Below, piece after piece: positions 1 to 26,314 of a stretch of DNA of 64,000 bases (positions are counted from its first letter, which is position 1; each line of letters begins with the position of its first letter). Made by a program: the position numbers and the translations under genes. Source of the DNA: Candidatus Spongiisociaceae bacterium (GTDB taxonomy: Bacteria > Actinomycetota > Acidimicrobiia > Spongiisociales > Spongiisociaceae); NCBI GenBank assembly GCA_965202665.1, contig OZ241841.1:2016001-2080000 (forward strand), given 5' to 3'. Under the pieces are notes generated by a model. It did not search any database. It was not told where the DNA came from and saw only the letters and a list, made by a program, of their open reading frames with translations.

Positions 1-1446
1 GACATCAACTTGGAGGTGGAAAAGGGGGAAATTCACGCCATCTGCGGGGAGAACGGGGCGGGTAAGTCCACGCTGATGAAAATCCTCTACGGAATGCAAC
101 AACCGGACGAAGGCCGTATTGAGATTATGGGGGAGGAGCGGCGATTTTCCTCCCCCAAGGACGCCATCGGTTTGGGGATTGGGATGGTGCATCAGCATTT
201 TATGCTGGCCGACAACCTGACCGTGTTGGAAAACGTAATTCTGGGAGCGGAGCCGGTGATCGCCGAGGTGATTAATTTCGCCGACGCCCGGGCCCGGTTG
301 AGCGAGTTGGGGGAGGCGTACGGGCTGAAAGTGGGATTGGACGACCGGGTGGACACGTTGGAGGTGGGGGAGCGGCAACGAATAGAAATCATCAAAATCT
401 TGTACCGGGGGGCCCAGATTCTGATTCTGGATGAGCCGACCGCGGTGCTGGTCCCCCAAGAAGTGGAGGAGTTGTTCCGCAATATGCGGGAGTTGAAAGC
501 CCAGGGACACACCTTGATTTTCATCGACCACAAACTGGACGAGGTGTTGGAAATCGCCGACACCATCAGCGTGTTGCGGGGCGGCCGGTCGGTGGCGACC
601 GTCAAACCGGAGGAGGTGACCGCCGGGGACTTGGCGGAGCTGATGGTCGGTTCGGAACTGCCCAAGCCCGCCACCACTTCCACCACCGTAACCGACCGGG
701 CGGTAGTGGAAGCCTCCGATGTTTCGGCGGTGGACGAGGAGGGCGTGGAACGTTTGAAAGGGGTCAGTTTCACGGTGCACGCCGGGGAGATTGTGGGGGT
801 GGCCGGCGTGGAGGGCAACGGCCAGGCGGAACTGATAGAGGTCCTCCTGGGGATAACTCCGGCCGCCGCCGGCCGGATTTTCCTGCACGGCGAGGACGTA
901 ACCGAGCTGTCGGTGCGCAAGCGCCGGGAGGCGGGACTGGGGTACATAGCCGAGGACCGCCAACGGAGGGGGCTTCTGCTCACTTCCCCGGTGTGGGAGA
1001 ACGCCATTTTGGGTCATCAGACCCGTCCCGAGTTCGTGCGCTCCCGGGTGTGGATCAACGAACGGTCCGCCCGTCGCCATTCCGCCGGAATGGTGGACCG
1101 GTTCGATGTGCGCACCCCGGGGGTGGACACCCCCATTCACGCCCTGTCCGGCGGCAACCAGCAGAAACTGGTGGTGGGGCGGGAAATGTCGGTGGACTGC
1201 AATCCGTTGATAGCCGCCCATCCCACCCGGGGGATAGACGTGGGTTCGCAGGCCGCCATCTGGGAGGATTTGCGGGCCGCCCGGCGGGGCGGGCAAGCGG
1301 TTTTGCTGGTCTCCGCCGACCTGGAGGAGTTGATCGGATTGAGCGACTCCCTGCTGGTGATGCTTAGGGGGGAGATAGCGGCCCGCCTGGATCCTTCCCG
1401 GATCACCCCCCGCCAGTTGGGGGCCTATATGACGGGGGCGGCGTGA
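1..1446 (+). CDS. ABC transporter ATP-binding protein, two-NBD nucleoside/sugar (NupA/YufO-like) type; 5' end lies outside the window
   Basis: Walker A GENGAGKST, LDEPT Walker B, second NBD with LSGGNQQK; frame open from base 1. Confidence 0.93.
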   Translation, partial: DINLEVEKGEIHAICGENGAGKSTLMKILYGMQQPDEGRIEIMGEERRFSSPKDAIGLGIGMVHQHFMLADNLTVLENVILGAEPVIAEVINFADARARLSELGEAYGLKVGLDDRVDTLEVGERQRIEIIKILYRGAQILILDEPTAVLVPQEVEELFRNMRELKAQGHTLIFIDHKLDEVLEIADTISVLRGGRSVATVKPEEVTAGDLAELMVGSELPKPATTSTTVTDRAVVEASDVSAVDEEGVERLKGVSFTVHAGEIVGVAGVEGNGQAELIEVLLGITPAAAGRIFLHGEDVTELSVRKRREAGLGYIAEDRQRRGLLLTSPVWENAILGHQTRPEFVRSRVWINERSARRHSAGMVDRFDVRTPGVDTPIHALSGGNQQKLVVGREMSVDCNPLIAAHPTRGIDVGSQAAIWEDLRAARRGGQAVLLVSADLEELIGLSDSLLVMLRGEIAARLDPSRITPRQLGAYMTGAA

Positions 1447-2585
1447 GAGCGGCGGTCCGCATCGTGGGTCCGCCGGTGGCGGCCCTGCTGTTGGCGGCGG
1501 CGGTGGCCGGGTTGATACTCTTGATCTCCGGGGCCAATCCGCTGGTGGCCTTCGGCAACGTGTGGGAGTACGGTTCCCGGTTGGAAACCCTGCTGGAATC
1601 TTTGAACCGGGCCACTCCGCTCTACATTTCCGGGATCGCCTTCGCCATCGCCATGCGGATGAACCTGTTTCAAATCGGGGTGGAAGGGCAGTACATTCTG
1701 GCCGCCTTCATGGCCGCTTACGTGGGGGCGGCGGTGGGGCCCCTGTTCCCCCCCCTGCACATCGCCATTATCCTGCTCACCGCCATGGCGGTGGGGGCGG
1801 CCTGGGCGGGTTTGGCCGGGTTGATGAAAATCACCCGCAACGTGCACGAGGTCATCTCCACCATAATGCTCAACGCCATCGCCGTGGCGGGGGTGGTCTC
1901 CTTTCTGCTGGGCCGGTGGGCCATCCCGTTGGAGTCGCTGGACACCCGCTTGGCCGACATTCCCGAAACCGGATGGTTTCCCAGCCTCAACCCGGTGGTG
2001 GAATGGTTCACCCGCGACATCAGACGGGTGGATCTGACCTCTTTCATCTTGGTGGCGGCGGCGGTGGGGGTGGTTTACCACTTGCTGGTCAACCGCACCC
2101 GGCTGGGTTACGACCTGCGGGCCACCGGGGTCAATCCGTGGGCGGCGGAGGCCAGCGGGGTGCCTCCCAAGCGGACCATCATGCTGGCCATGTTGCTGAG
2201 CGGGGCGGTGGCGGGCTTGGTGGGGATGGCCGACCTGTTGGGCGACCAGTATTTCTACAGCCTGCGCTTCCCGCAAGGTTTGGGTTTCACCGGCATCGCG
2301 GTGGCGTTGGTGGGGCGCAACCACGCGGTGGGGGCGGCCTTTGCCGCCGTCGCCTTCGGCTGGCTGGAGCGGGCCTCCGGGGTGTTGGAAGTTCGGGGCG
2401 ACGCTCCGCGGGAGGTGGTCACCATTATGGTGGGGGTGGTGATCCTGTTCGCGGTGATCGCCTACGCCTTGGCCCAGCGCCGGCGCCGAATTGAAGCGGC
2501 GGCCGCGGCCGCCGACCAGATGAAGGAACGGGCCGTCGTCCGGGTCGGGGGATCGGGGGACGACGGGCGGGAGGCTGACATATGA
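1443..2585 (+). CDS. ABC transporter permease (nucleoside/sugar family)
   Basis: Multi-TM; LFQIGVEGQY, HEVISTIMLN and GFTGIAVALVGRN motifs; GTGA overlap with the ATPase gene. Confidence 0.9.
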   Translation: MRAAVRIVGPPVAALLLAAAVAGLILLISGANPLVAFGNVWEYGSRLETLLESLNRATPLYISGIAFAIAMRMNLFQIGVEGQYILAAFMAAYVGAAVGPLFPPLHIAIILLTAMAVGAAWAGLAGLMKITRNVHEVISTIMLNAIAVAGVVSFLLGRWAIPLESLDTRLADIPETGWFPSLNPVVEWFTRDIRRVDLTSFILVAAAVGVVYHLLVNRTRLGYDLRATGVNPWAAEASGVPPKRTIMLAMLLSGAVAGLVGMADLLGDQYFYSLRFPQGLGFTGIAVALVGRNHAVGAAFAAVAFGWLERASGVLEVRGDAPREVVTIMVGVVILFAVIAYALAQRRRRIEAAAAAADQMKERAVVRVGGSGDDGREADI

Positions 2586-3859
2586 GCATGACCGAAGAGC
2601 GGCCGCTCAGCCTTTCCCAGCCGGGGATGCTGCCCCGTTACCGGTGGATACTGTACGGGTTGAGCGGGATTATGTTGCTGGCGGTGACCCAGCAGTTCGC
2701 CGCCCTGCCCACTGAAGATCTGACCTCCAGCGGCACCTGGTCCATCGCTTTGGCTTGGTCGGTGCCCATTTTGCTGGCCGGCCTGGGCGGCATGTTCTCC
2801 GAACGGGCCGGGATCGTCAACATCGGACTGGAGGGGATGTTGATTCTCGGCACCTGGTTCGGGGCTTACGGAACGGTGGTGGCCGGGCCGTGGGCGGGGA
2901 TGCTGATGGCGGGTATCGCCGGGGCGGTGGGCGGACTGATCATGGCCGCGGCCGCGGTCGGATTCAACGTGGATCATATTATCGCCGGGGTGGCCATCAA
3001 CCTGATGGCCCCCGGTTTGACCCGCTTCCTGTCCGATGTGCATTTCTCCGACCGGGGCGGCTCCATTACCCAGTCGCCGGTCATCTCCGGGGTGAGCGAT
3101 TTCACCTTGCCCATCCTGGCGGGCGGAACCATCCTCGGATGGCGGAGCCCGGACCTGTTGGGGGCGATCGAGCGGTCGGGCTGGTTTTTCATCTCCGACT
3201 TTGCTGGCGTCCTGCGCGGGTTTGTTTTTCAGATGTCCTGGTTCACCCTGCTGGTCTACCTGTTCGTGCCCTTCTCCATTTTCCTGTTATGGCGCACCAA
3301 GTTCGGCCTGCGGTTGCGCAGTTGCGGCGAGCATCCGCAGGCGGCCGATTCCCTGGGGGTCAACGTTTACAAGTACAAGTACTACGGGGTGGTGATCAGC
3401 GGGGCCCTGGCCGGGGCGGGGGGCGGCTTTCTGGCCATTCAGCTGTCCGGCGTCTACAAGGAGGGGCAGACGCAGGGCAAAGGGTTCATCGGTTTGGCCA
3501 CCATGATTTTCGGCAACTGGAACCCGTTGGGCACTGCCCGGGGGGCCATCCTGTTCGGGTTCACGGAGACCCTGCGCTTGCGGGATCCCAACGCGGCCCA
3601 CGGGCTGTTGTTGCTGGTGGTGATCTCGGTGGGTCTTTTAATCCTGTGGCGCATCCTCCGCAAACGGGGCGTGGGAACCTGGCAGTTGGCGATTGTGGCC
3701 ATCGCCGTCGGATACTGGTATTTCAACTCCACCGGGGTGCCCAACCAGTTGCCGGCCATCACCCCCCACATCGTGGTGCTGGTGGTTCTCCTGTTCGCCA
3801 CCTCCCGATTGCGTCCGCCCGCCTCCGCCGGCCTGCCCTACCGCAAGGGCGAAGATTAG
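2582..3859 (+). CDS. ABC transporter permease (second subunit)
   Basis: SERAGIVNIGLEG, GLRLRSCGEHPQAADSLG and GKGFIGLATMIFGNW motifs; ATGA overlap. Confidence 0.9.
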   Translation: MSMTEERPLSLSQPGMLPRYRWILYGLSGIMLLAVTQQFAALPTEDLTSSGTWSIALAWSVPILLAGLGGMFSERAGIVNIGLEGMLILGTWFGAYGTVVAGPWAGMLMAGIAGAVGGLIMAAAAVGFNVDHIIAGVAINLMAPGLTRFLSDVHFSDRGGSITQSPVISGVSDFTLPILAGGTILGWRSPDLLGAIERSGWFFISDFAGVLRGFVFQMSWFTLLVYLFVPFSIFLLWRTKFGLRLRSCGEHPQAADSLGVNVYKYKYYGVVISGALAGAGGGFLAIQLSGVYKEGQTQGKGFIGLATMIFGNWNPLGTARGAILFGFTETLRLRDPNAAHGLLLLVVISVGLLILWRILRKRGVGTWQLAIVAIAVGYWYFNSTGVPNQLPAITPHIVVLVVLLFATSRLRPPASAGLPYRKGED

Positions 3860-3879
3860 CTGTTCCGCGAGGTCCCGGC

Positions 3880-4719
3880 ATGGTTGAGATCATCCCCCAC
3901 ATCGACGATATCGGGGTCACGTTGGGGTCGGTGCGGGCCATGGAGGAGCTGGCCGGCCGGGGGTTTGTCACTTCCGGTTCGGTTATGGCCCCCTGTCCCT
4001 GGTTGGCGGAGGCGGCCGCCCTGTCCGCCCGCCGCCCGGAGCTGGATCTGGGTCTGCATCTCACGCTCACCTCCGAGTCGGCGCGTATGCGCTGGCGGCC
4101 CCTTTCCACCCGCTCCCCCGCCTCCGGGTTGATCGACGGGGACGGGTTCATGTGGCCCACGGTTCCGCAGTTGCGGGCCAACGCCCATCCGGGGGCGGTG
4201 GAGGAGGAACTGGAAGCCCAGATTGAGGCGGCCCGCCGGGCGGGGATGGAGCCCACCCATCTGGATCATCATATGGGAGCGGCTTTCGCTCCCGAGTTCG
4301 CCGCTCTGACCGTGCGCATCGCCCGTCGCCGCCGGTTGCCGGTTTTGATACCGGCCGACCCGGCCGCCTACGCGGGGGTTCTGGAGTGGGGGGAGGCCGA
4401 TATGCGGGTTCTGGAGGAGGTGCGGGACCGGGAGCAAGCCGCCGGCGCGGTGTTGGCGGACCGGTTTTTGATGGGTCTGGCCTTCCAAGACGAGGAGCCC
4501 GACGCGGTTTATCGGCGTTTTTTGGCTGAAGCGGAGGGTTTGACTTTTCTGTCGTTGCACTGCGACTCCCCCGGCGAGGTTACGGCCGTCCACCCCAACG
4601 ACGCCGGCTGGCGCATCGCCGAATACGAGTGGGTCAAAGCGGGGGCCGCCCCTCTGCCCGACGGAGTCCGCCTGACGGACTTCCGGTCGCTGTCCGCCCG
4701 CTGGCGTTGGCCTGCCTAA
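3880..4719 (+). CDS. ChbG/YdjC-family carbohydrate deacetylase
   Basis: HIDDIG, TSGSVM, GLHLTL and PTHLDHHMG motifs; real start ATG 3880 inside the listed 2755..4719 ORF. Confidence 0.85.
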   Translation: MVEIIPHIDDIGVTLGSVRAMEELAGRGFVTSGSVMAPCPWLAEAAALSARRPELDLGLHLTLTSESARMRWRPLSTRSPASGLIDGDGFMWPTVPQLRANAHPGAVEEELEAQIEAARRAGMEPTHLDHHMGAAFAPEFAALTVRIARRRRLPVLIPADPAAYAGVLEWGEADMRVLEEVRDREQAAGAVLADRFLMGLAFQDEEPDAVYRRFLAEAEGLTFLSLHCDSPGEVTAVHPNDAGWRIAEYEWVKAGAAPLPDGVRLTDFRSLSARWRWPA

Positions 4720-4757
4720 AGGTTCCGAGAACAATGCAAACCCGCCCGAAATTTCGG

Positions 4758-4976
4758 AGTTTGACAGAGTTTATGCGTTTCGCATAAGGTTGATAAGGTG
4801 GGGTTAGGTTTGTATAACTCTCCATCAGCGAGGAAGTTTGACAGAGTTTATGCGTTTCGCATAAGGTTGATAAGGTGGGGTTAGGTTTGTATAACTCTCC
4901 ATCAGCGAGGAAGTTTGACAGAGTTTATGCGTTTCGCATAAGGTTGATAAAGTATAGTAAGGTCTGAATAACTATG
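4758..4976 (+). repeat. 77-bp tandem repeat: two identical units plus a third unit that diverges in its 3' half and runs into the ATPase ATG
   Basis: TTGACA recurs at 4761, 4838 and 4915 (period 77); each unit contains the palindrome TTATGCG-TTT-CGCATAA. Confidence 0.95.
4761..4970 (+). promoter_or_regulatory. Repeated sigma70/SigA-like promoters with an embedded operator-like palindrome
   Basis: Each unit has TTGACA-N18-TAAGGT with the palindrome spanning the spacer and overlapping the -10; units 1-2 also have TTGATA-N17-TATAAC. Confidence 0.6.
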
Positions 4977-6158
4977 GACGTAAACGAAAATCCGTATCGC
5001 CCCGGAGCCGGTACCAGGCCTCCGGTGCTGAGAGGACGCGATGATCTATTCGCCCGCTTCGAGGGCATAGTAGAACATGCACTCCGCGGGCGGCCCGGTA
5101 AAAGCTTGGTGTTGCTGGGCTTGCGCGGCGTCGGCAAGACCGTGTTGTTGAACCAGTTCGTCAGTCTCGCCGAGCAGAAGGGTTACAGCACGGGACATAT
5201 GGAGGCCGATGAATCCCAGGACCTGCGTTTGTTGATGGCCATGCGCCTGCGTCGGATTCTGCTGGCCTTGCAAAGACGACGCCCGTCGCAAAAAATTATG
5301 CGGGCGTTGCGGATACTGAAAGCCTTCAGCTACCAGTTGCCGGATGGTTCCCTTGTCACTTTGGATGTGGAGGCGTTGCGGGGTTACGCCGATTCCGGCG
5401 TTATCGGCGATGACCTAACGGATTTGCTGGTCGCCGTAGGGGAGGCGGCCGCAGGCCAGGAGCGAGGCGTGCTGTTGGCGGTAGATGAAATTCAGTATTT
5501 GGCGAAAGAGGAGTTGGGAGGGTTGATTGCCGCTATTCACCGTACCACCCAACTGGATCTTCCGGTGGTGCTGGTGGGAGCCGGCCTGCCCCAGTTGCCC
5601 AAATTGGCGGGTGAGGCTAAATCTTACTCGGAACGGTTGTTTGAATTTCCCTTTGTCAACTCTTTGTCGGAGGAAGACGCCGCGGCCGCCATCGCCCTGC
5701 CGGCGGCGCCGTTGGGAGTGGAGTTTGCGGACGCCGCCTTGGAAGCCATCTTCGCCAACTCAAAAGGCTATCCGTATTTTCTGCAGGGTTGGGGTTATTA
5801 CGTATGGAATGAGGCCGGCGTCTCTCCGGTTGGTCCGGAGGCGGTGCGGGCCGCGGCCGAGTTGGTCGTCAAGCATCTGGATCGCGATTTCTATGCGATG
5901 CGCTTTGATCGCTTGACTCTCAAAGAAAAAACATATTTACGGACTATGGCCGAATTCAAATCCAGCAAGATACGCTCCGGGGATATCGCCGCCCGCCTCG
6001 GGGTTCCGGTGGAGAACGCCGCTCCCCGGCGCAGCGCCTTGATCCGGAAGGGCATGATTTACAGTCCCGGGTACGGCGAGACGGCTTTCACCGTCCCCAT
6101 GTTTGACGATTTTTTGCGGCGGCAGATGCCGGATTTTCAGGCGGCGACGGGCGATTGA
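4974..6158 (+). CDS. AAA/STAND-like P-loop ATPase with probable C-terminal winged helix
   Basis: NPYRPGAG..GR N-terminus, Walker A GLRGVGKT, Walker B LLAVDEIQ, GYPYFLQ, and a wHTH-like SGDIAARLG...LIRKGMIY; codon usage more AT-rich than neighbours. Confidence 0.85.
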   Translation: MDVNENPYRPGAGTRPPVLRGRDDLFARFEGIVEHALRGRPGKSLVLLGLRGVGKTVLLNQFVSLAEQKGYSTGHMEADESQDLRLLMAMRLRRILLALQRRRPSQKIMRALRILKAFSYQLPDGSLVTLDVEALRGYADSGVIGDDLTDLLVAVGEAAAGQERGVLLAVDEIQYLAKEELGGLIAAIHRTTQLDLPVVLVGAGLPQLPKLAGEAKSYSERLFEFPFVNSLSEEDAAAAIALPAAPLGVEFADAALEAIFANSKGYPYFLQGWGYYVWNEAGVSPVGPEAVRAAAELVVKHLDRDFYAMRFDRLTLKEKTYLRTMAEFKSSKIRSGDIAARLGVPVENAAPRRSALIRKGMIYSPGYGETAFTVPMFDDFLRRQMPDFQAATGD

Positions 6159-6171
6159 CGGCTGGTTGGAT

Positions 6172-6200
6172 TTGGCGGCCGGCCGGGTATGGCGTATAAT
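6172..6200 (+). promoter_or_regulatory. Promoter of the rplJ-rplL operon
   Basis: TTGGCG-N17-TATAAT. Confidence 0.65.
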
Positions 6201-6233
6201 GCTTCCCTTGCGTCCGCTTGCGGGCGGGCGCGC

Positions 6234-6294
6234 GACCGTAGACAGCCGGCGCCGTAAAGCGTAAGCGGCCCGTTCGGGTCCGCCTGCCGAGGTC
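6234..6294 (+). ncRNA. L10 leader (ribosomal protein autoregulatory RNA)
   Basis: GACCGTAGACAG...CCTGCCGAGGTC pattern typical of L10 leaders, directly upstream of rplJ. Confidence 0.75.
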
Positions 6295-6348
6295 CTTCCC
6301 GGTCTCCGGGCGGCTGTCGCGGGTGGAGCAGAGCCAAGGAGAGACCAA

Positions 6349-7047
6349 ATGCCCCGACCGGACAAGGTCCAGGCAGTCGAAGATATCAAGCAACGGTTCC
6401 AGAATGCCTCAGCCGCTTTCCTGACTGAATATCGCGGGTTGCCGGTGGCCCGCCAGCAGGAACTGCGCGGGGCCCTGCACGACGCCGGGGCCGGATACAA
6501 GGTGCTGAAAATGTCCCTTACCCGCCGGGCGTTGGACGAGCTGGGGATGGAGGGGCTAGATGAATGGCTGACCGGCCCCACCGCCATCGCGTTCACCGGC
6601 GATGATCCCGTTCCGGCCGCCCGCGCCCTAGCCGACTTCGCCAAGGCGAACGACGCCTTTTTAATTAAGGGGGGATGGTTCAACGGGGAGGCCATCCCGT
6701 CGGAAGTGGTTTCCCGGCTGGCCAACATCGACTCCCGCGAGGCGCTGTTGGCCAAAACGGCGGGCGCTTTTAAAGGGCCCCTCAACAAGATGGCGGCGGT
6801 TATGGGTTCTTTCACCCGAGAGGCCGCCTCCCTGTTCTCCGCCCTGTTGGAACGCAAAGAGGAGATACCGTCGGAGGCCGCCCCCGTCGCCGGCGGCTCC
6901 GAAGAGCCGGCTCCGCCGGCCCAGGATGCCGCCCCGGCCCCCGATGTTGATTCCGAGTCCGTTCCTACCGCCGCGGCCGGAGAAGACGACGAAGCGGACG
7001 GGGCGGAGGGCGCCGACCCCGATCAGATCACCCAAGACAATCAATAA
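6349..7047 (+). CDS. rplJ: 50S ribosomal protein L10 with acidic C-terminal tail
   Basis: LTEYRGL, GPTAIAF and IKGG motifs; AAGGAG RBS. Confidence 0.96.
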
Positions 7048-7063
7048 CGCGAAAGGACAAGCA

Positions 7064-7450
7064 ATGGCCAAAATGACCACCGACGAACTGCTGGGCGTGT
7101 TCGAGGAGATGACCGTCCTGGAGTTGAAAGAGTTCCTAGACGCCTTCGAGGAGCGCTTCGATGTCACCGCGGCCGCCCCGGTGGCGATGGCCGCCATGCC
7201 CGCCGGCGACGGCGCGGGCGCGGCCGAAGAAGAGGAAAAAGACGAGTTCGACGTGGTGCTCCTCGGCCCCGGCGACCAAAAGATCCAGGTGATCAAAGAA
7301 GTTCGGGCCCTCACCGGCTTGGGATTGAAGGAGGCCAAAGCGGTGGTGGACGACGCTCCGGGCGCCGTCTTGGAAGGGGCCTCCAAGGAGGAAGCGGAGG
7401 CGGCCCGGGACAAGATCGCCGCCGTGGGCGGGCAGGTGGAAATCCGATAA
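7064..7450 (+). CDS. rplL: 50S ribosomal protein L7/L12
   Basis: [18 protein letters not shown] and [20 protein letters not shown]; AAAGGA RBS before ATG 7064. Confidence 0.97.
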
Positions 7451-7472
7451 CCGCCGCCGTCCGGCCCCCGAT

Positions 7473-7502
7473 TTGACAAGCCGCGCCGGCATCTGTTACG
7501 AT
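7473..7502 (+). promoter_or_regulatory. rpoBC promoter
   Basis: TTGACA-N18-TACGAT with extended -10 TG. Confidence 0.7.
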
Positions 7503-7758
7503 GGCGACACACAAGTAGATCCGGTTTCCCCGTCGCCCGCCCGCAGGCGCGCGGGTCCGGGTTGCAATAACAGCCCGCCCCAAGCCGGGCTCCCCGATCC
7601 GGTATCGGCGGCTTGCGGCGATGGAAACGGCAGGTACGGGTTGCGCCCGCCTGTCTTTGCTGTGCCAGATTAAGTCGGCCGACGTTCGATACCGGGCCCC
7701 GTCGGATGCCGGGCGGCTTGCCGGTTGCTATAGGGGGATAACCCCAAGGAGGATGCTC

Positions 7759-11256: not shown

Positions 11257-14200
11257 GTGCGCGAGCTGTTCGATGAACTGAAAATTGGTTTGGCGTCCTC
11301 CGATCAGGTGCGGTCCTGGTCGTTCGGGGAGGTGAAGAAGCCGGAGACCATCAACTACCGCAGCTTGAAGCCGGAGAAGGACGGGCTGTTCGACGAGCGC
11401 ATTTTCGGTCCGCAGAAGGACTGGGAATGCTACTGCGGCAAATACAAGCGTTTTCGCTACCGGGGCATCGTGTGCGAAAAATGCGGCGTGGAGGTGACCC
11501 GCAAGGATGTGCGCCGGGATCGGATGGGCCACATCGACCTGGCCGCCCCGGTCACCCATATCTGGTTTTTCAAAGGAGTCCCCTCCCGGTTGGGGTATCT
11601 GCTGGACATGTCCCCCAAAAACCTGGAGATGATCATCTACTTTGCGGCCTACGTGATCACGGAAGTGGACGAAGGCAAACGGATGGTGGATCTGCCCGAC
11701 CTGGAGGAGCAGATGCGGGCCGAGTTGGAAATTGTGGGGGAGGAGTTGGAGGAGTGGCGGTTGGAGCGGCTGTCCCGGTTGGAGAAGCAGGTGGAGCAGA
11801 TGGAGGAGGCGGGGGCCAAGCTGGCGGAGGTGGCCACCGTGCGCCGCGAGGCGGAGCGGGAAATCAAGGATCGGGAGGAGAAAGCGGAGAAGGAACGCGA
11901 GTTGATCAAGGAGAGTTTTGCGGAATTTCGCGAGTTGCGTCCCAAAGATCTGGTGGAGCGGGAGGATTTGTGGAGGGAGATGCACGAACGCTACTCGGCC
12001 TACTTCGATGGGGGAATGGGGGCGGAGGCGGTGAAGAAATTGCTGTCCAAGGTGGATTTGGACGCCGAGATGGAGGAGTTGCGGGAAGGTTTGCAATCAT
12101 CGTCGGCGCAACGGAAACTGCGCTCCGGGCAACGTGTGAAGGTGGTGAAGCCCTTCTGGGAGGGCAAGCATTCGCCGGAGAGCATGATTATAGAGGCGGT
12201 TCCGGTCATCCCGCCTGAGTTGCGACCCATGGTGCAGTTGGACGGGGGGCGCTTCGCCACCTCCGACCTGAATGACCTGTACCGGCGGGTGATTAACCGC
12301 AACAATCGCCTGAAGCGGCTGTTGGGGTTGAACGCCCCCGAGATCATCATCAACAACGAGAAGCGCATGTTGCAGGAGGCGGTGGACGCCCTGTTCGACA
12401 ACGGGCGGCGGGGGCGGGCGGTGCCCGGTACCGGCAATCGTCCCTTGAAGTCTTTGACCGACATGTTGAAGGGCAAAGCGGGGCGGTTCCGGCAGAACCT
12501 GCTGGGGAAGCGAGTGGATTATTCCGGCCGGTCGGTGATCGTGGTGGGCCCGCAGTTGAAGTTGCATCAGTGCGGTTTGCCCAAGGTGATGGCGTTGGAG
12601 TTGTTCAAGCCGTTCGTGATGAAGCGGCTGGTGGACCGGGATTTGGCGGCCGGCATCAAGGCGGCCAAGCGGATGGTGGAGCGGCAACGTCCGCAGGTGT
12701 GGGACGTGTTGCGGGAGGTGATACAGGATCATCCGGTGTTGCTCAACCGGGCCCCCACTTTGCACCGGCTGGGGATTCAAGCTTTCGAACCGTTGCTGGT
12801 GGAAGGCAAAGCCATACAGATTCATCCCCTGGTGTGCGAGGCTTTCAACGCCGACTTCGACGGGGATCAGATGGCGGTGCATCTCCCCTTGTCTCCGGAG
12901 GCGCAGGCCGAGGCGCGGGTGCTGATGCTGTCCACCAACAACGTACGTTCCCCGGCCAGCGGCCATCCCATCGTGTCCCCCTCCCAGGACATGGTCATCG
13001 GCCTCTACTACCTGTCGGCGAATATCAAAAAAGAAGGCGCCTTGGGGACAGGCCGGTACTTTGCCGATCTGCCGGAGGCGTTGATGGCCTATGACTTGGG
13101 TGAGTTGGAAGTGCACGCCCCGATCAAAATTCGGATGGGCGATATGGCGGGCGACCCGCAGGTGCACGCCGAGCTGAAGGATCTGATCGGGTATCTGATC
13201 ACCGACCAACCGGTGGATGGCCAGGTTCCGATGGACACCACTTTGGGCAAGGCCTTACTCAACCAAGCCCTGCCCGCCGATTTCCCGTTGATCGACGCTC
13301 CTTTGTTGAAGAGCGGCATCAAAGACCTGCTCGCTGAGATCATCGACCGCTACGACAAGGCGGTGGTGCAACGCACTCTGGACGGGCTCAAGGATTTGGG
13401 TTTCGCCTTTTCCACCCAGGCGGGGCTCACCGTGGGTTTGAACGATGTGACCACCCCGCTCGACAAGCCGAAGATACTTAACGAGGCGGAGGACAGGGCG
13501 CAGAAGAAGGAACGAGAGTACCAGCAGGGGAGCATTACCGCCCAGGAACGGGATCAGGAGTTAGTGGAGATTTGGAGCGAAGCCACCGAAGAGTTAACCC
13601 AGAAGGTGCGCACTTCCCTGTCCGATCAGGACTTCAACCCCATTGATATGATGATGAGCTCCGGCGCCCGGGGCAACATCATGCAGGTGCGCCAGATAGC
13701 CGGTATTCGCGGCTTGGTGGCTAACAACCGCGGACGCATCATCCCCCGGCCCATCAGGTCTAATTTCCGAGAGGGGATGACTGTGCTGGAGTATTTCATG
13801 TCCACGCACGGGGCCCGCAAAGGTCTGACCGACACCGCTCTGAAAACCGCCGACGCTGGTTATCTGACCCGCCGCCTGGTGGATGTGTCCCAAGAGATTA
13901 TCGTCTCCGAAGAGGAATCGGAGGATCGGGGCATCGACATCCGCGTACGGGATGCAAAAGGCGATACCCTCCCCGACTTGCGCAACCGCATCTACGGGCG
14001 GGTGTTGGCCGAAGATGTGAAAGTGGATTACAAGTTGCGTATCACCCGCCCCGGTGATTCCAACTTCGAAGCTGGCCAAACCGTGGAGTTCACGAAGTTT
14101 GCGTCCGTCAAACGGGAGTTGTTGGAGGCTGGCAAAAAACCGGCCGAAGGTCGGCCGACGGGAGGTAAAACGGCCCTTACCAAGGATGGCGTGGCTCTGG

Positions 14201-16113
14201 AGGCGGGGGCGGTGATTGACCGCAAGGTGATGGTGGAACTGCAGGCTATGCCGGAAGTCGACTCGGTGCGGGTGCGTTCCCCGCTCACCGACGAGATCCG
14301 GCACGGCATCAGCCGCGCTTCCTACGGGCTGAGCATGTCCACCAACCAACTGGCGGAACCGGGCGAGGCGGTGGGGGTGATGGCCGCCCAGTCCATCGGC
14401 GAGCCGGGCACGCAGCTGACCATGCGCACCTTTCATACCGGGGGGGTGGCCGATGAAACGGATATCACCCACGGCCTGCCCCGGGTGGTGGAGTTGTTCG
14501 AAGCCCGCTCCCCCAAGGGAAAGGCCATCTTGGCCGAGGCCAGCGGAAAAGTGCGCATTGACGATGGTGAAGAGGGGGTGCGCGCTTTGGTAATCGAATC
14601 CCCCCGGAGCGGGGAAGTCAAATACCGCTTGTCCCCCAACGCCCGGTTGCGGCCCGGGGTGCGAGAGGGGGGTGAAGTCGCCGCCGGAGATCAACTTACC
14701 GAAGGGCCGTTGGATCCCAAAGAGGTGTGCCTCATCAGAGGAGTGCGGGCCTGTCAGCAGTATCTGGTGGATCAGGTGCAGGATGTGTACCGCAACCAGG
14801 GGGTGGAGATTCACGACAAGCACATCGAGCTGATCGTGCGGCAGATGTTGCGCAAAGTGCGCATCATCGAGCCCAACGACACCGATTTTCTGCCCATGCA
14901 GATGGTGGATCAGGGAGAGTTCCGGGACACCAACCGGGAGTTGGCGGCCGCGGGCAAGCAACCGGCCGAGGGCCGTCCGGAGCTGATGGGGATCACCAAG
15001 GCCTCGCTGGCTACCGAGTCCTGGTTGTCGGCCGCATCCTTCCAGGAAACCAGCCGCGTGCTCACCGAGGCGGCCATCAACGGACGCTCCGACTACCTGC
15101 GGGGACTGAAGGAGAACGTGATCATCGGCAAGCTGATTCCGGCCGGCACCGGTTCCGATGAATACCAGAAACTCCAACCCGAGCTGTCCCAGGCGCAGAT
15201 AACACCCCCCTTGACCGGAGCCGACTGGTTGGCCGTGCGGGAGATGGAAGTATTCACCGAAGAGGTCGCCGGTGAGGCCGAGGATAAGGCCGCCCAAGCC
15301 GAGGAGGCCCGGGCCAGGGCGGAGGAGAAAAAGGCGGAGGTGAACGCCGCCACTGACGATGCCGAGAAATATACTTTGAGGAGGGAAAGAGACGAAGAAT
15401 ATGAACGGGCCGCCCGCTATGACCGGGAGGCGGCCGAGGAGGAGGAGCGGGCCGCGGCCCGCAAGTTGGCCCATGCCCAAGCGAAGGCGGAGGAGGCCGA
15501 GGAAGCCGAAGCGGCCGCCCAGGAGAAAGAGTTGGAACAGGCTCGCAAAGAGGCGGAAAAGGCCCGGCAAGCGGTGGAGAAGGCCCGGGAGAAGGAAGAC
15601 AAGGCCGCCAAAACGCGCCGGGAGAGGGCCGCCAAAGAGGCGCAAAAATGGAAGGATCGGGCACAGCGGGCATTGCGAGAGGCCGAAGGGAAGCAGAAGC
15701 AGGTGGCTGATAAAACGGAGCAGGCTAAAGCCGCGCTGGATATAAGCGCAAAGGTGGATTTGGCGCGGCAGGTCGTGTCTGAATCCGAGAAGGTGATCCA
15801 AGGCGTACGGGAAGCGAGGAAAGCGGCAACGGTAGCCCAGGAGGCTGAAGTTAAGGCTGAGCTGGAAGATACAGAAGCGCCGCAGGTAATAGAGGACGCC
15901 GAACAGGTGATCCTAGATGTGGAGCAAAAGGTTCAGGAGTTGCGGGCCTCGCTGGATGCTCCCCAACAGGATGCGGGAGCTATTGACAGATCCCTCGACG
16001 AGAACCGCGAGTCCTTGACGAGGATGGCCGTTACCTTGCAGAAGTTCACCGACTGGTTGAAAAAAATCGGCGAGCTCGTCGCCGATGCCCTAAAGAAACT
16101 GCTGGGAGGGTAA
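11257..16113 (+). CDS. rpoC: RNA polymerase beta' subunit with a long C-terminal extension (1618 aa)
   Basis: N-terminal Zn finger CYCGK..CEKC, catalytic [23 protein letters not shown], and [14 protein letters not shown] ending at aa 1299; AAAGGAG RBS with GTG start. Confidence 0.99.
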
Positions 16114-17568: not shown

Positions 17569-19671
17569 ATGAGCTCCCCCCTTGCCCGACTCCGTCAGTT
17601 TCCGCTGAGCCGCACTCGCAACATCGGGATCATGGCCCATATCGACGCCGGCAAGACCACCCTCACCGAGCGGGTCCTCTACTACACCGGACGCACCTAC
17701 AAGTTGGGCGAGGTGCACGAGGGGGCGGCGGTGATGGACTGGATGGAGCAGGAGCAGGAGCGGGGCATCACCATCACCTCCGCCGCCACCACCTGCGAGT
17801 GGCATGAGCATTGGATCAACATCATCGACACCCCCGGCCATGTGGATTTCACCGTGGAGGTGGAACGTTCCTTGCGGGTGCTGGATGGGGCGGTGGCCGT
17901 CTTCGACGCGGTGGCCGGCGTGGAGCCGCAGTCGGAGACTGTTTGGCGGCAGGCCGACCGCTACGAGGTGCCCCGCATCTGTTTCATCAACAAGATGGAC
18001 CGGGTGGGGGCCGACTTCTACGCGGCCGTGGATTCCATCCGTGACCGGTTGGACGCCGTTCCGCTGGTGATGCAGATCCCGATCGGCTCCGAAGCCGGGT
18101 TCACCGGGGTGGTGGACCTGGTGGAGATGAGGGCGCACACCTGGCAGGGCGACGACGGCCGCACTTGGAACACCGGCCCCATCCCCGATGAATATCTGGC
18201 GACCGCCTCCGAATACCGGGGCCGGATGCTGGAGCAGGTGGCGGAAGTCGACGAGAAACTGCTGGAGAAGTACCTGGAGGACTTGGACATTTCCCCGGGC
18301 GAGATCACCATGGCGGTGCGGGCGGGCGTCCTGCAACATTTATTCAATCCGGTGCTGTGCGGGGCCGCTTTCAAAAACAAGGGAGTGCAACTGTTGCTGG
18401 ACGCGGTGGTGGATTACCTGCCCAGCCCGGTGGACCTGCCCGCCGTGTCCGGGTTCGTCCCCGGTCGCGAGGATCAGACTTTGCATCGCCCCCCCGCCGA
18501 CGACCAGCCCTTCTCCGCCTTGGCCTTCAAAGTGATCAGCGACCCGCATGTGGGCAAACTCACCTATTTCCGAGTTTATTCCGGCCAAGCCTCCAAGGGC
18601 GGAACCCTGCTCAACACCGCCAGCGGGCGCAAGGAACGGCTGGGACGCCTGTTGCGCATGCACGCCAACCATCGGGAGGACCGGGAGGATGTGTTCACCG
18701 GCGATATCGTGGCCGCGGTGGGACTGAAGCACACCACCACCGGCGACACCCTCAGCTCCGTGCGGGACCCGATCGCCTTGGAGTCGATGTCCTTTCCGGC
18801 TCCGGTGATTTCGGTGGCTATCGAACCCCGTTCCAAGGCCGACCAGGAAAAATTGTCCGAGTCACTCAGCCGGTTGGCCGAAGAGGACCCCACCTTTTTG
18901 GTGCGCTCCGACGAAGAAACCGGGCAGACCATCATCTCCGGGATGGGCGAGTTGCATTTGGACATCTTGGTGGACCGGCTGGTGCGGGAGTTTCGGGTGG
19001 ACGCCAATGTGGGCCGCCCGCAGGTGGCCTACCGGGAAACCATCCGCGGCCCGGTGGAGAAGATGGAGGTGCGCCATATCAAGCAGAGCGGCGGCCGGGG
19101 CCAGTATGCGGTGGTGGTCGTTTCTTTGGAGCCCACCGGTCCCGGGGGCGGCTTCGAGTTCGTGGACGAAATCAAAGGAGGCTCGGTTCCCCGCGAGTTC
19201 ATCCCCTCCGTCTCGGCCGGCATCCAAAACGCCCTGGACCAGGGGGTGCTGGCCGGCTATCCGCTGGTGGACGTACGGGCCCGCTTGGTGGACGGCTCCG
19301 CCCACGATGTTGATTCCTCGGAGATGGCTTTCCGCATCGCCGGGTCCCTGGCCCTGCGGGAAGCGGCCCGCCGGGCGGGCGTCAAAATGCTGGAGCCGGT
19401 GATGGCGGTGGAGGTGGTCACCCCCGAGGAATATATGGGGGAGGTCATCGGCGACCTATCCGCCCGGCGGGGTAGAATAGGGGAAACCAACCAGCGGGGT
19501 TCGGTGCGGGTGGTAACCGCCCGGGTTCCGTTGGCCGAAATGTTCGGATACGTGACCGACCTGCGGTCCAAGACCCAGGGCCGGGCCACTTCCACCATGC
19601 AATTTCATTCATACGACGACGTGCCCGAGCAGGTCGCCGGCGAGATAGTAGCCGCCGCCCGCGGCGAATAG
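17569..19671 (+). CDS. fusA: Elongation factor G
   Basis: [28 protein letters not shown] and GMGELHLDI. Confidence 0.98.
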
Positions 19672-19688: not shown

Positions 19689-20879
19689 ATGGGGAAGCCG
19701 AGGTTTGAGCGTTCGAAGCCGCATGTGAATGTGGGGACGATGGGTCATATTGATCATGGGAAGACGACGTTGACGGCGGCGGTGACGCGGGTGTTGGCGG
19801 AGCGGGTGGGGGGTGTGAATGTTTTTTCGGCGTTTGATGAGATTGATAAGGCTCCGGAGGAGCGGGAGCGGGGGATTACGATTTCGATTGCGCATGTGGA
19901 GTATGAGACGGAGAGTAGGCATTATGCGCATGTGGATATGCCGGGGCATGCGGATTATATTAAGAATATGATTACGGGGGCGGCGCAGGTGGATGGGGCG
20001 GTGTTGGTGGTGTCGGCGGCGGATGGTCCGATGCCGCAGACGAGGGAGCATGTGTTGTTGGCGAGGCAGGTGGGGGTGCCGTGTGTGGTGGTGGCGTTGA
20101 ATAAGGTGGATTTGGTGGATGATGGGGAGTTGTTGGATTTGGTGGAGTTGGAGGTGCGGGAGTTGTTGGGGGAGTATGGGTTTGATGGGGATGGGGCTCC
20201 GGTGGTGCGGGTGTCGGCGTTGGGGGCGTTGGAGGGTGATGTGGGGGCGGGGGATGGGGTGATGGAGTTGTTGGGGGCGGTGGATGAGTTTGTGCCGGTG
20301 CCGGAGCGGCCGGTGGATTTGCCGTTTTTGATGCCGATTGAGGATGTGTTTTCGATTACGGGGCGGGGGACGGTGGTGACGGGGAAGGTGGAGGCGGGGG
20401 TGTTGCGGGTGGGGGGGGATGTGGAGGTGGTGGGGATTAGGGAGACGAGGAGGTCGGTGGCGACGGGGGTGGAGATGTTTCGTAAGTTGTTGGATGAGGG
20501 GAGGGCGGGGGATAATGTGGGGGTGTTGTTGCGGGGGGTGGGGAAGGATGAGGTGGAGCGGGGGCAGGTGTTGGCGGCTCCGGGGTCGATTACGCCGCAT
20601 ACGGTGTTTGAGGCGCAGGTGTATGTGTTGACGAAGGAGGAGGGGGGGAGGCATAATCCGTTTTTCTCGGGTTATCAGCCGCAGTTTTATTTTAGGACGA
20701 CGGATGTGACGGGGAAGGTGGAGTTGCCTGGGGGGGTGGAGATGGTGATGCCGGGTGATAACACGACGATGACGGTCACGTTGGGGTCTCCTATTGCGAT
20801 GGACGAGGGTTTGCGGTTCGCCATCCGGGAGGGGGGCCGCACGGTGGGGGCGGGCACCGTCACCCAAATCCACAAGTAA
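19689..20879 (+). CDS. tuf: Elongation factor Tu (extreme G/T codon skew)
   Basis: [27 protein letters not shown] and [13 protein letters not shown]. Confidence 0.99.
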
Positions 20880-20907: not shown

Positions 20908-21216
20908 ATGAAAAACTACAAGATCCGCATCAAACTGAAGGCGTACGATCACCAGGTGATCGACGAGTCGGCGCGCAAGATCGCCGAAACCGTTATCCGC
21001 ACCCAAGCCACCGTGCGCGGCCCCATCCCCCTTCCCACCAAGATCCAGCGCTACTGCGTCATACGTTCCCCGCACGTTTATAAAGACTCCCGCGAGCATT
21101 TTGAGATACGAACCCACAAGCGGCTGTTGGACATCCTCGATCCCACCCCCAACACGGTGGAGTCCCTGATGCGCTTGGACCTGCCCGCCGGGGTGGAAGC
21201 GGAGATCGAGACATGA
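20908..21216 (+). CDS. rpsJ: 30S ribosomal protein S10
   Basis: [24 protein letters not shown]. Confidence 0.98.
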
Positions 21217-21848
21217 GTTTGACCACCATTGTCGGCGAAAAGGTGGGGATGACGCAGATCTTCGATGAGGAGGCGCGGGCCCTCCCGGTAACGGTTATCA
21301 AAGCCGGCCCCTGCCGTATCGTCCAGATACGCACCCCCGAAACCGACGGCTATTCCGCCGTCCAGCTCGGTTACGGCCAAGCCCGCGGCGCCAATCGCCC
21401 CGTTTCCGGTCATTACGCCAAAGCCGGGGTGGAGCCCGCCCGGCGGTTGGTGGAAGTGCGGGTGGACGATGTTTCCGAGTTTGCGGTGGGGCAGGAGATC
21501 AAGGTGGAGGACATTTTCCAGCCGGGCGGCAAGGCGGATGTAACCGGCGTTTCCAAAGGCAAAGGTTTCCAGGGGGTGATGAAACGACACAACTTCCGGG
21601 GTCAGAAGGCCAGCCACGGCGCCCACAAAATCCATCGCGCTCCGGGGGCCATCGGGGCTTGCGCCACCCCCGCCCGGGTGTTCAAAGGAACCAAGTTGCC
21701 GGGCCGCATGGGGGCGGAGCGGGTCACCGTCCTCAACTTGGCGGTGGTGGGCGTGGACGCCGAACAGGGCCTGCTTTTACTGCAGGGGGCGGTGCCCGGC
21801 CCCAAAGGGGCGATGGTGTTCGTGCGGGAGGCGGTCAAGAATGCCTGA
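21213..21848 (+). CDS. rplC: 50S ribosomal protein L3
   Basis: [23 protein letters not shown]. Confidence 0.98.
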
Positions 21849-22674
21849 TCTGTCCGCCCCCCTCTACGATTCCGCCGGAACCGAAAAGGGAGAGGTGGAG
21901 TTGGACGCCGACCTGTTCGGGGTGGAACCCAACCGGGCGGTGATGCACCAGGCGACGGTGGCCTATTTGGCGGGACGGCGGTCGGGAACCGCCAAAGTCA
22001 AATCCCGCTCCGAAGTGCGGGGGGGAGGCCGCAAGCCTTGGCGGCAGAAAGGTTTGGGACGGTCCCGGCACGGGTCCATCCGCTCGCCCCTGTGGGTGGG
22101 GGGCGGCTCCGCTCACGGACCCCGGCCCCGCACCTACGCCCAGCGCACCCCCAAGAAGATGCGCGGCTTGGCCCTGCGCAGCGCCCTGTCCTGCCGGGCG
22201 GCGGAAGGGGCGGTGAAAGTGGTGGAAGATTTTGAATGGGACGTCCCCCGCACCCGGCGGGCGGCCGAGTTGCTAGCCGCCATCGGGGCGGACGGCAAGG
22301 CCTTGGTGGTGTTGGCCGGCGGGCAGGGGACGGCCGAAGCCTCTTTCCGCAACCTGCCGCAGGTGATTTTGGGCCGGGCGGGCCACCTTAACGCCTATGA
22401 CGTGCTCTGGTCGGACACGGTGGTGTTTTCCGGTTCGGCCCTGTCCTATCCGGATCCGTTCGTCGCTCCCGGACAGGAAGCAGTCCCCGCCGCCGATTCC
22501 GAAGAAGATGTTCCCCTCCCCGAATCTCCCCCAACCGGGGAAACCGATGAAGGCGAGGCCCCGGTTGCCGAAACTCCGCCCGCGGACTCCGATTCCGAAT
22601 CAGATTCCGAATCTGCGCCGGAGGGCGGGGAAGAGGACTCCGGGGAAGAAGAAGAGGAGGGGGCGAATGTCTGA
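21841..22674 (+). CDS. rplD: 50S ribosomal protein L4 with acidic C-terminal tail
   Basis: [22 protein letters not shown]. Confidence 0.97.
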
Positions 22675-24074: not shown

Positions 24075-24436
24075 GGGCCGTCGCCCACGCCCGCTATATT
24101 CGCCAGTCGCCCTACAAGGTGCGTTTGGTGCTGGATCAGGTGCGGGGGCGCCCGGCGTCCGAGGCGCGGACGGCCCTGCGCTTCTCCAACCGCCGCGCCG
24201 CCGGCCCTATCTTGAAATGCCTGGATTCGGCCATCGCCAACCTCAACTCCAAGTTTGATCTGGGGCAGGACGTGGATTCTCTGGCCGGCGAAGTGAGGGT
24301 GGAGGAGGCTTACGCCGGCGAGGGGCCGACCCTGAAAAGGTTCCGTCCCCGGGCCCGGGGGCGGGCCGCCCGCATCCGCAAGCGCACCAGCCATATCACG
24401 ATTGTGGTTTCCGATGAACGGGAGGAGAGGGAATAG
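24071..24436 (+). CDS. rplV: 50S ribosomal protein L22
   Basis: [28 protein letters not shown]. Confidence 0.97.
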
Positions 24437-25467
24437 TGGGGCAGAAAACCCACCCGTACGGGTTCCGTTTGGGCATCGTCACTGACTGGAAGTCGCGTTG
24501 GTTCTCCAACAAGGAATACCAGGACCTGGCCAATCAGGATTATCAGATCCGCGACTACCTGTGGCGGGAGTTGGCGCGGGGGGCGGTGTCCCGCATCGAT
24601 GTGGAACGCACCCGCGACAAGCTGGTGGTGGAGGTGCACACCGCCCGTCCCGGGGTGGTGATCGGACGCAAAGGGGCGGAGGCGGACCGCATCCGCAACG
24701 GTTTGGAGAAGATGGCGGGCCAACCGGTGAAGTTGAACGTGGTGGAGGTGAAAGAGCCCGACTCCGACGCCCTGTTGCTGGCCCGGGGAGTGGCCGACCA
24801 GTTGGAGAACCGGGTGGCTTTCCGCCGGGCTATGAAACGGGCGGTGCAGACGGCGCTGACCGCCGGGGCGGAAGGGGTGCGCGTGGAATGCTCGGGCCGC
24901 CTGGGCGGGGCCGATATGGGACGCCGGGAATGGTACCGGGAGGGACGGGTGCCTTTGCATACCCTGCGGGCCGACATTGACTACGGCCGGGCCACGGCCC
25001 GCACCACGGTGGGGGCCATCGGCGTCAAAGTGTGGGTCTACAAGGGGGATCTGGTTTCTTCTTTGAAGACCACCCGCGAGAAAATCGCCGCTGAGGCGGC
25101 CCTGGCCGCGGGCGGTCCCGCCGGACGGGTGATTTCGGCCAAGAGCCGGGCCGAGCAACGCACCGGCGAACGCAAGACCCCCCGCGTCATCGAAGCGGGG
25201 GGCGGCAAGCGCCTGATCGAAGCGGGCGGCGGCCGCAAGGTGACCGCGGCCGAGGCCCGTTCCGAATACCGGGAGGCGGTGGAGGATCAAGAGGAGAAAC
25301 TGGACATCCTGTCCGACTCCGGGGCCGATGAGGCGGGCGACTCTGATGCCGGGGAGCATACCCCGGAGGAGAGGGTCGGGGCGCCGGGTGATGGGACGGC
25401 GCCCGCCGACGGGACGGCCGAGGATTCGGATCCCCCCTCCTCCGAGGCGGGCGGGGAGGAAGAATAA
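24436..25467 (+). CDS. rpsC: 30S ribosomal protein S3 with long C-terminal extension
   Basis: [35 protein letters not shown]; GTG start. Confidence 0.97.
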
Positions 25468-25880
25468 TGTTGATGCCCAAACGCACCAAGTACCGCAAGG
25501 TGCACCGGGGCCGCATGCGGGGCTACGCCAAGGGCGGGTCCGCCGTTTCCTTCGGCGACTACGGGATCCAGGCCTTGGAGCCGGGGCACATCACCGCCCG
25601 CCAGATCGAGTCGGCCCGGGTGGCCATCACCCGCACCGTGCGACGGGGCGGCAAGGTGTGGATAAATATTTTCCCGGACAAGCCGATGACGGCCAAACCG
25701 GCTGAGACCCGCATGGGATCCGGCAAAGGCAACCCCGAGTTCTGGGTGGCGGTGGTCAAACCGGGGCGGGTGATGATGGAGTTGTCCGGGGTGGGCGAGG
25801 ATTTGGCCCGGGAGGCGATCCGCAAGGCGGGCCACAAGTTGCCCATCAAAACCAAGTTCGTGGTGAGGGAGACCGGATGA
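25467..25880 (+). CDS. rplP: 50S ribosomal protein L16
   Basis: [17 protein letters not shown]. Confidence 0.98.
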
Positions 25881-26314
25881 AGACTTACGAAGCGCGCGAG
25901 ATGACCTATGCGGAGCTGGTCGAAAAGTTGGAGGAGGCCAAGGATGACCTGTTCAACCTGCGCTTCCAGCTGGCGGTCAGCCAATCCGACAACACCGCCC
26001 GCTTGGGCGAGTTGCGCCGGGACATCGCCCGCATGAGAACCGTGCTCAACGAATGGGAGCGGGACGGCCGCCCCCTCGGCTACGAAGAGGGGGAATATGA
26101 ATGGGAGTCCCCGCCAGTCGACGAAACCGACGCCGAATTCCCAGAGGAGGAAGAAGCGGCGGCGGAGGAGGAGGATGCAGGGCCGATTCTGGAGGAGGAG
26201 ACGGCGGCCGCTCCGTCCGATGAGCAAGAAGAGCAGGATGATGATTCCGTCGAGGAGCAAGCGGAGGAGGATGCCAAGCCCCGCCGCCGCTGGGGCAGGC
26301 GGAGTAAGAAATGA
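25877..26314 (+). CDS. rpmC: 50S ribosomal protein L29 with ~80-aa acidic then basic tail
   Basis: LFNLRFQ and RRDIARMRT; position between rplP and rpsQ. Confidence 0.95.

Follow-up and report, generated by a model that had tools for sequence, protein, structure and literature searches.

The tuf gene of the str operon in the genome studied here (G000; a single contig, C1, of 2.77 Mb, 94% complete) has an identical second copy, and by the published thresholds the pair is a genuine GRINS (genetic repeat of intense nucleotide skews) situated in a core gene. From the comparison between genomes we infer that NucS is the causal agent of this skew: with a probability that we put at about 70%, NucS filters the ectopic gene conversion between the tuf copies and this filtering leads to the accumulation of G and T on the leading strand. 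The notion that tuf conversion is itself mutagenic, which was put forward in a preliminary description of this DNA, is probably wrong, and the NucS filter is the reading that we prefer. GRINS as a class and the concerted evolution of tuf genes are already known; what sets this case apart is the location in a core gene together with the proposed filter mechanism, for which no earlier paper was found in the mostly open-access literature searched.

The window, by which we mean the whole 64,000-nucleotide stretch that was analysed, contains the rpoC-str-S10 region, and the closest relatives of its rplB product carry the label Acidimicrobiia (75–81% identity). The tuf gene (EF-Tu, 396 aa; TIGR00485 above cut-off) occupies positions 19689..20879 of the + strand, its entire coding sequence being the repeat unit. 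The origin-facing 90% of this repeat (19689..20759, + strand, here the leading strand) is saturated with codons ending in G or T, the fraction of which we denote K3. Codons 1–357 end in G (271), T (85) or C (1) and never in A, and, as described initially, the sole C-ending codon is TTC at 20664; Leu is encoded by TTG in 27 cases out of 27 and Arg by AGG (10 of 23), CGG (11) or CGT (2), while the antisense frame is stop-free and has C or A as the first letter in 356 of its 357 codons. Given the same protein and the codon usage of the unique leading-strand genes of G000, 165 A/C-ending codons out of 356 would be expected, and the log10 probability of seeing no more than one is −105. The adjoining single-copy genes serve as controls. 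Upstream, fusA (17569..19671, + strand) is unskewed with a K3 of about 0.48 and has 311 C-ending codons out of 700, and downstream rpsJ (20908..21216, + strand) has 50 out of 102; the C-ending fraction spans 42–49% over fusA, rpsJ, rplC and rplB. The return of C was correctly located near 20762, since it first appears at codon 358 (20760–20762), but it is graded rather than abrupt: 3 of the 19 codons 358–376 end in C, and 13 of the 20 codons 377–396 end in A or C. Position 20760 is not the boundary of the repeat either, as the copies remain 100% identical over this relaxed, origin-distal 3' tail (20760..20879, + strand; 15 of 39 sense codons ending in A or C) through the stop codon at 20879. 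The 3' fall-off of the skew is also found in most relatives.

The predicted second tuf gene is present 1 Mb away on the minus strand (C1:1042375-1041185) and matches the first at 1191 of 1191 nt. The identity extends exactly from the start codon to the stop codon and the flanks are unrelated. The two copies occupy the ancestral contexts fusA-tuf-rpsJ and tRNA-tuf-rpmG-secE, the latter locus reading tRNA-tuf-rpmG-secE-nusG with three tRNAs upstream of the gene, and their complete identity, against 96% for the protein of the nearest relative, conforms to concerted evolution. The dnaA gene (C1:1346663) lies at the cumulative GC-skew minimum, hence both copies are leading-strand genes. In run X4, which comes from another study, the loose contig ends at 19689 and 20879 match the flanks of copy 2, and the contig depth is about twofold higher at the start of tuf (371.6) than at fusA (170.3).

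GRINS were described in 2021 (PMC8256042) as duplicated stretches of more than 500 bp with more than 80% DNA identity elsewhere in the genome and with GC and TA skews above 0.15. The tuf repeat measures 1191 nt, is 100% identical to its partner and has skews of 0.60 and 0.23, the mean absolute values for fusA being 0.11 and 0.12, so that its initial characterization as GRINS-like was justified. A typical though not obligatory trait of GRINS is that GC and TA skews correlate and peak at third codon positions; in tuf the correlation is r = 0.51 (35 overlapping windows) and 356 of 357 third positions carry G or T. Published GRINS and the repeats of G000 are also alike in that amino-acid content is affected and that both signs of skew occur inside one repeat (PMC8256042), but the published examples sit in polyketide synthase genes, whereas here a core translation gene is concerned. 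The GRINS paper does not settle the cause and views the skew as promoting conversion (PMC8256042); we propose, conversely, that conversion combined with a repair filter would generate the skew. The words tuf, NucS and 'mismatch' are absent from the main text of that paper, and tuf is absent from its one supplement. In a search that covered mostly open-access literature, we found no paper tying GRINS or tuf skew to NucS and no report of a long-term strand-specific compositional drive exerted by NucS on repeats.

The dependence of the skew on a partner copy and on NucS was evaluated in 91 Actinomycetota genomes, comprising all 29 tuf-matching genomes among 41 relatives and, out of 181 genomes with a match in a sample of the phylum, 62 more, namely the other 36 with two copies whose positions were both listed and 26 hand-picked ones with a single match. 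NucS was scored as present on strong matches alone (E <= 1e-21), and five genomes with weak partial NucS_C hits (G157, G247, G043, G042 and G182, two of them above the Pfam cut-off) were scored as being without it. In the 35 genomes with two tuf copies and NucS, K3 is 0.58–0.98, and 0.68–0.98 in the 33 whose copies are at least 98% identical; the two lowest-K3 pairs are also the least identical ones (96.6% and 92.7%). In the 21 two-copy genomes in which NucS was not found K3 is only 0.36–0.56, and in 19 of them the copies are at least 98.8% identical, so that duplication alone is insufficient. A single tuf match without NucS found goes with a K3 of 0.39–0.51 (n = 15). Of 20 genomes with NucS and one match, 13 lie at 0.39–0.49, and the seven raised ones (0.62–0.97) all hint at a missed second copy: a contig edge, chimeric flanks, the tRNA-locus copy alone or a second partial match. 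In G034 and G035 one tuf copy has verifiably been lost and NucS is present, and K3 is 0.42 and 0.46, so the verified single-copy relatives are unskewed; the copy status of G005 (88% complete) is ambiguous. Particularly close contrasts come from two members of the same order in which NucS was not found, G031 and G028, only 85% and 93% complete, respectively: the former has copies 99.4% identical with a K3 of 0.56, and the latter, counted as one match but representing a collapsed duplicate, has a K3 of 0.44. One further entry of the single-match group, G039, has the same appearance as G028.

In G000 itself NucS looks intact (NF002876, 333.7 bits against a cut-off of 252) and no MutS match was found in this 94% complete genome, which is the combination that a NucS filter presupposes. 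Of 66 genomes, two gave a MutS match, and each of these has two unskewed tuf copies (K3 0.47 and 0.55). On a quick EF-Tu tree the skewed genomes form three clades that also contain unskewed single-copy genomes, and the unskewed two-copy genomes represent about seven lineages. It counts against the filter that the presence of NucS tracks phylogeny, so another co-inherited gene could account for the skew, and that the absences of NucS come partly from incomplete genomes. Among the same-class genomes G031, G028, G032, G188 and G232, NucS was not found, nor was MutS where searched. The tuf gene of G031 retains a weak remnant of the skew (11 TTG, 10 CTG), as might follow a recent loss. In G138 (L051-L052), with copies 96.6% identical, the skew is confined to the 3' part of tuf (0.71–0.73 against 0.39–0.57), the inverse of the usual profile.

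The identity of the bases gained was assessed at fourfold sites as log-ratio shifts between the 5' half of tuf and fusA. In the high-GC clade the shifts are +1.92 for G/C, +1.86 for T/C, +0.03 for A/C and +0.06 for G/T, and in the order of G000 they are +3.81, +4.22, −0.13 and −0.40, respectively. G and T thus gain almost equally over C and A, a pattern closer to the specificity of NucS than to a process of transitions only. For the high-GC clade, a keto bonus with a single parameter yields G/T/C/A fractions of 0.673/0.124/0.196/0.007, where 0.679/0.118/0.196/0.007 is observed; it fits this clade within 0.01 and the f13-15 clade within 0.03, and the transitions-only models fail in both (predicted G of 0.33–0.52 against 0.68 in the high-GC clade). 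The pooled composition of the own order (G 0.68, T 0.29) is intermediate, the keto model predicting 0.76/0.22 and one transitions-only model 0.595/0.38. Taken one by one, 33 of the 34 genomes have a G/C shift above 1 and 33 show a higher purine share; the mean G/T shift over the 34 is −0.28. The bias therefore separates G and T from A and C for transitions and transversions alike, near-exactly in two clades and to an intermediate degree in the pooled own order. Sorting the differences between tuf copies by class did not discriminate between the models. Two features of G000 speak against the NucS filter in that the published second-order specificity of the enzyme does not predict them, namely an extra gain of G over T (+0.94) and an excess of AGG (10:13 against 2325:24081 genome-wide). 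AGG was rejected as a general signature, its count being 0–5 in other skewed family members and 7–14 in some unskewed genomes.

The override of codon optimisation noted earlier is real, and it reaches the choice of amino acids. Relative to five unskewed relatives, EF-Tu of G000 has 26 keto-gaining replacements (such as I>V, E>G, K>R and T>S) and 6 keto-losing ones; the corresponding counts are 20–29 against 4–11 in four other skewed genomes and range from 4:6 to 14:9 in unskewed controls.

The screening of other repeats in G000 revealed the same skew, arranged by replication strand, and so bore out the strand asymmetry assumed in the preliminary description. Sequence repeated at 80% identity or more occupies 9.9% of the genome, yet of the 74 most skewed stretches 55 are mostly repeat; another 12 show self-matches that are shorter or older, and 7 show no self-match. 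On the + strand the left end is more keto-rich than the right in 68 of 91 repeat blocks, same-family blocks being non-independent in this count, as against 948 of 2000 random unique segments. Followed along the leading strand from the origin-facing end, G/T-richness is 0.24, 0.20, 0.20, 0.17 and 0.075 in co-oriented families (35 blocks) and 0.27, 0.13, 0.10, −0.09 and −0.21 in mixed-orientation families (17 blocks, 3 intermediate blocks being excluded from the profiles), with a baseline of 0.035 in unique DNA. Within co-oriented repeats K3 is 0.355 for head-on genes (n = 14) and 0.646 for co-directional ones (n = 35), which places the control of the sign with the replication strand and not with the sense strand; the values for unique genes are 0.473 and 0.522, all of these genes having been called by a rough in-house caller that missed some. 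The transcription strand is excluded as the determinant of skew by the C/A-rich head-on repeated genes. The occurrence of both skew signs on one strand, a point that the GRINS paper leaves unexplained (PMC8256042), is accounted for by where a sequence lies within its repeat and how the copies are oriented to the fork.

Some loci depart from this order. Two single-copy genes at C1:637571-640440 (L152:1572-4441) have K3 values of 0.83 and 0.96–0.98 with G/T on the lagging-sense strand, and the locus ends in a run of 33 G; the genes gave no NCBIfam match and have no partner copy in the assembly, a same-genus homolog (37% identical) has a K3 of 0.79 and other homologs about 0.5. A single-copy locus skewed like tuf on the opposite replication strand is evidence against the NucS filter. 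The orientation of tuf in relatives is likewise only partly in line with the polarity rule. One copy in G014 is head-on and its 3' end reverses to a K3 of 0.16, but in G002 both copies are leading, the skew map agreeing with the dnaA position, and the 3' end nevertheless has a K3 of 0.18, so mixed orientation was rejected as the sole source of C/A-rich 3' ends and leading-strand events must matter in some species. With both copies leading, G020 and G001 fall to 0.42–0.48 at the 3' end; G135 was scored as lagging but lies near the assumed terminus. The head-on segment of G014 (L016, C1:2253236-2257414), judged from the dnaA position, comprises tuf and its tRNAs.

The mechanism that we propose would operate as follows. 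The two identical tuf copies would exchange sequence by ectopic gene conversion, a strand from one copy pairing with the template of the other, and any keto/amino difference between them would yield a keto–keto or an amino–amino mispair. The G-T, G-G and T-T mispairs would be cut and removed by NucS, and the A-C, C-C and A-A mispairs, unseen by the enzyme, would become fixed in half of the daughters. If the incoming strand mainly replaces the nascent lagging strand, a geometry that we infer, only changes toward G or T on the leading strand would pass and this strand would ratchet to G/T. Conversion tracts would run toward the origin-facing boundary, with coverage greatest at the front of the gene and smallest over the last ~120 nt, where the tracts may start. 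The enzyme indeed cuts G/T, G/G and T/T and spares C/C, A/C and A/A (PMC4838380), and in vivo in M. smegmatis, among the mispairs formed by lagging-strand oligos, short-patch repair rejects G-T and G-G, and C-C, A-A, A-C and G-A survive (PMC11551744). The scheme thus shares with known NucS/EndoMS repair the keto–keto specificity, the rejection of incoming lagging-strand alleles and a role against homeologous recombination (PMC4838380, PMC8228993, PMC11551767, PMC11551744). Against the filter counts an M. tuberculosis preprint, in which NucS repair is suggested to be reduced during recombination (PMC13061034). A toy simulation reproduced the expected sign and shape, but it presupposed the NucS model and used arbitrary rates, and is hence not evidence.

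The preliminary description was right about duplication and conversion. It was with the supposedly mutagenic nature of the conversion that it went astray. On that account repair synthesis or long-lived single-stranded DNA during the exchange would cause one strand to undergo C>T and A>G changes, through deamination or tautomer errors, a proposal of the GRINS paper (PMC8256042); this would explain a keto gain restricted to repeats, and the intermediate pooled composition of the own order and the negative mean G/T shift over the 34 genomes lean the same way. We hold it to be unlikely, because the 19 near-identical pairs in genomes where NucS was not found lack the skew, because G rises like T, which transitions-only models do not predict for the high-GC clade, and because DnaE2 does not follow the skew and was rejected as the cause: it is above cut-off in only 20 of the 35 skewed genomes, gave no above-cut-off match in seven of the most skewed ones, G000 included, and is present in the unskewed G031 and G028. 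A rather unlikely explanation, too, is that another recombination or repair factor co-inherited with NucS (AdnAB- or RuvA-related, for example) makes the keto bias and NucS is a mere marker. The independent contrasts on the quick tree are few, the alternatives to NucS examined were MutS and DnaE2 only, and ruvA variants are associated with GRINS number (PMC8256042); the keto-versus-amino split, on the other side, exactly matches NucS biochemistry, and G031 and G028 of the same order behave as the NucS filter predicts.

Selection on translation, for an unstructured G/U-rich message or a special tRNA pool, would favour these codons in tuf, which is very highly expressed and has the most extreme skew among the repeated genes of G000 (K3 0.96). 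This explanation is largely refuted and we regard it as very improbable, given that the adjoining translation genes are C-rich, that the single-copy tuf of relatives is normal and that other repeats are skewed by replication strand, with their head-on genes C/A-rich. Scarcely credible are two further readings, namely that the gene was acquired horizontally from a donor with G/T skew or that it is an artefact of the assembly. The branches leading to the family and the genus on the EF-Tu tree are long (0.18 and 0.11), but keto-gaining replacements explain such length, tuf of G000 falls among its own genus and family and is found at both ancestral loci, and the tree shows no sign of the simple transfer that was considered at the outset. 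As for an artefact, contigs from four other studies cover tuf, and the flanks of both copies appear in run X4, which refutes it.

The system combines features of several known ones. As in the concerted evolution of tufA and tufB, two copies in the str and tRNA-rpmG-secE loci are kept identical by conversion bounded by the gene ends, but the published account, in the parts concerned with conversion, contains no compositional drive (PMC5485169, PMC6053082). The likeness to GC-biased gene conversion is a more general one. There, a bias in heteroduplex repair acts as a non-adaptive fixation bias and can push amino-acid changes, and the filter proposed for tuf would be a fixation bias of the same kind; the axis differs, being G+C versus A+T in that process and G+T versus A+C on one strand here, and the keto bias of tuf, unlike GC-biased conversion, needs an intragenomic partner.

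On the whole we find it probable that bacteria with NucS have a general strand-specific, keto-biased gene conversion that enriches recombining repeats in G/T where each strand's homology tract has its 5' end, mostly on the leading strand, that it rewrites EF-Tu and that it is what causes GRINS in actinobacteria, among them those of the Streptomyces polyketide synthases. It cannot explain all GRINS, since these occur in 53–90% of genomes from five phyla, four of which are not Actinobacteria (PMC8256042). The proposal offers a specific cause in the form of one deletable gene, with a predicted sign, gradient and orientation dependence that can be tested in laboratory actinobacteria. If true, it would constitute a second, non-adaptive kind of biased gene conversion, one whose drive overrides codon optimisation and shifts the amino acids of an essential protein; distortion would be expected in tuf phylogenies, in codon-adaptation references and in selection tests for these lineages, and repeats that actively recombine could be recognised by their skew profiles.

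Several other features of the genome deserve mention. Multi-copy blocks of 6–13 kb, 77–94% identical and each with a near-linear gradient from G/T to C/A, lie on C1 at 1-7550, 479.5-514.4 kb, 766.7-780.7 kb, 1014-1036 kb, 2217-2231 kb, 2454-2468 kb and 2591-2626 kb. A dispersed repeat of 1.09 kb (C1:788649-789742 and six further copies, 90–98% identical), possibly an insertion sequence, has an antisymmetric skew running from about +0.4 to −0.3. Homopolymer runs of at least 12 number 52, of which 51 consist of G or C, and several are placed at repeat ends. Within the window, the product of rpoC (11257-16113) has a C-terminal extension of about 300 residues rich in Ala, Glu and Lys, the DNA being purine-rich at 15150-15900, and long acidic C-terminal tails are encoded by rplD (21841-22674), rpsC (24436-25467) and rpmC (25877-26314).
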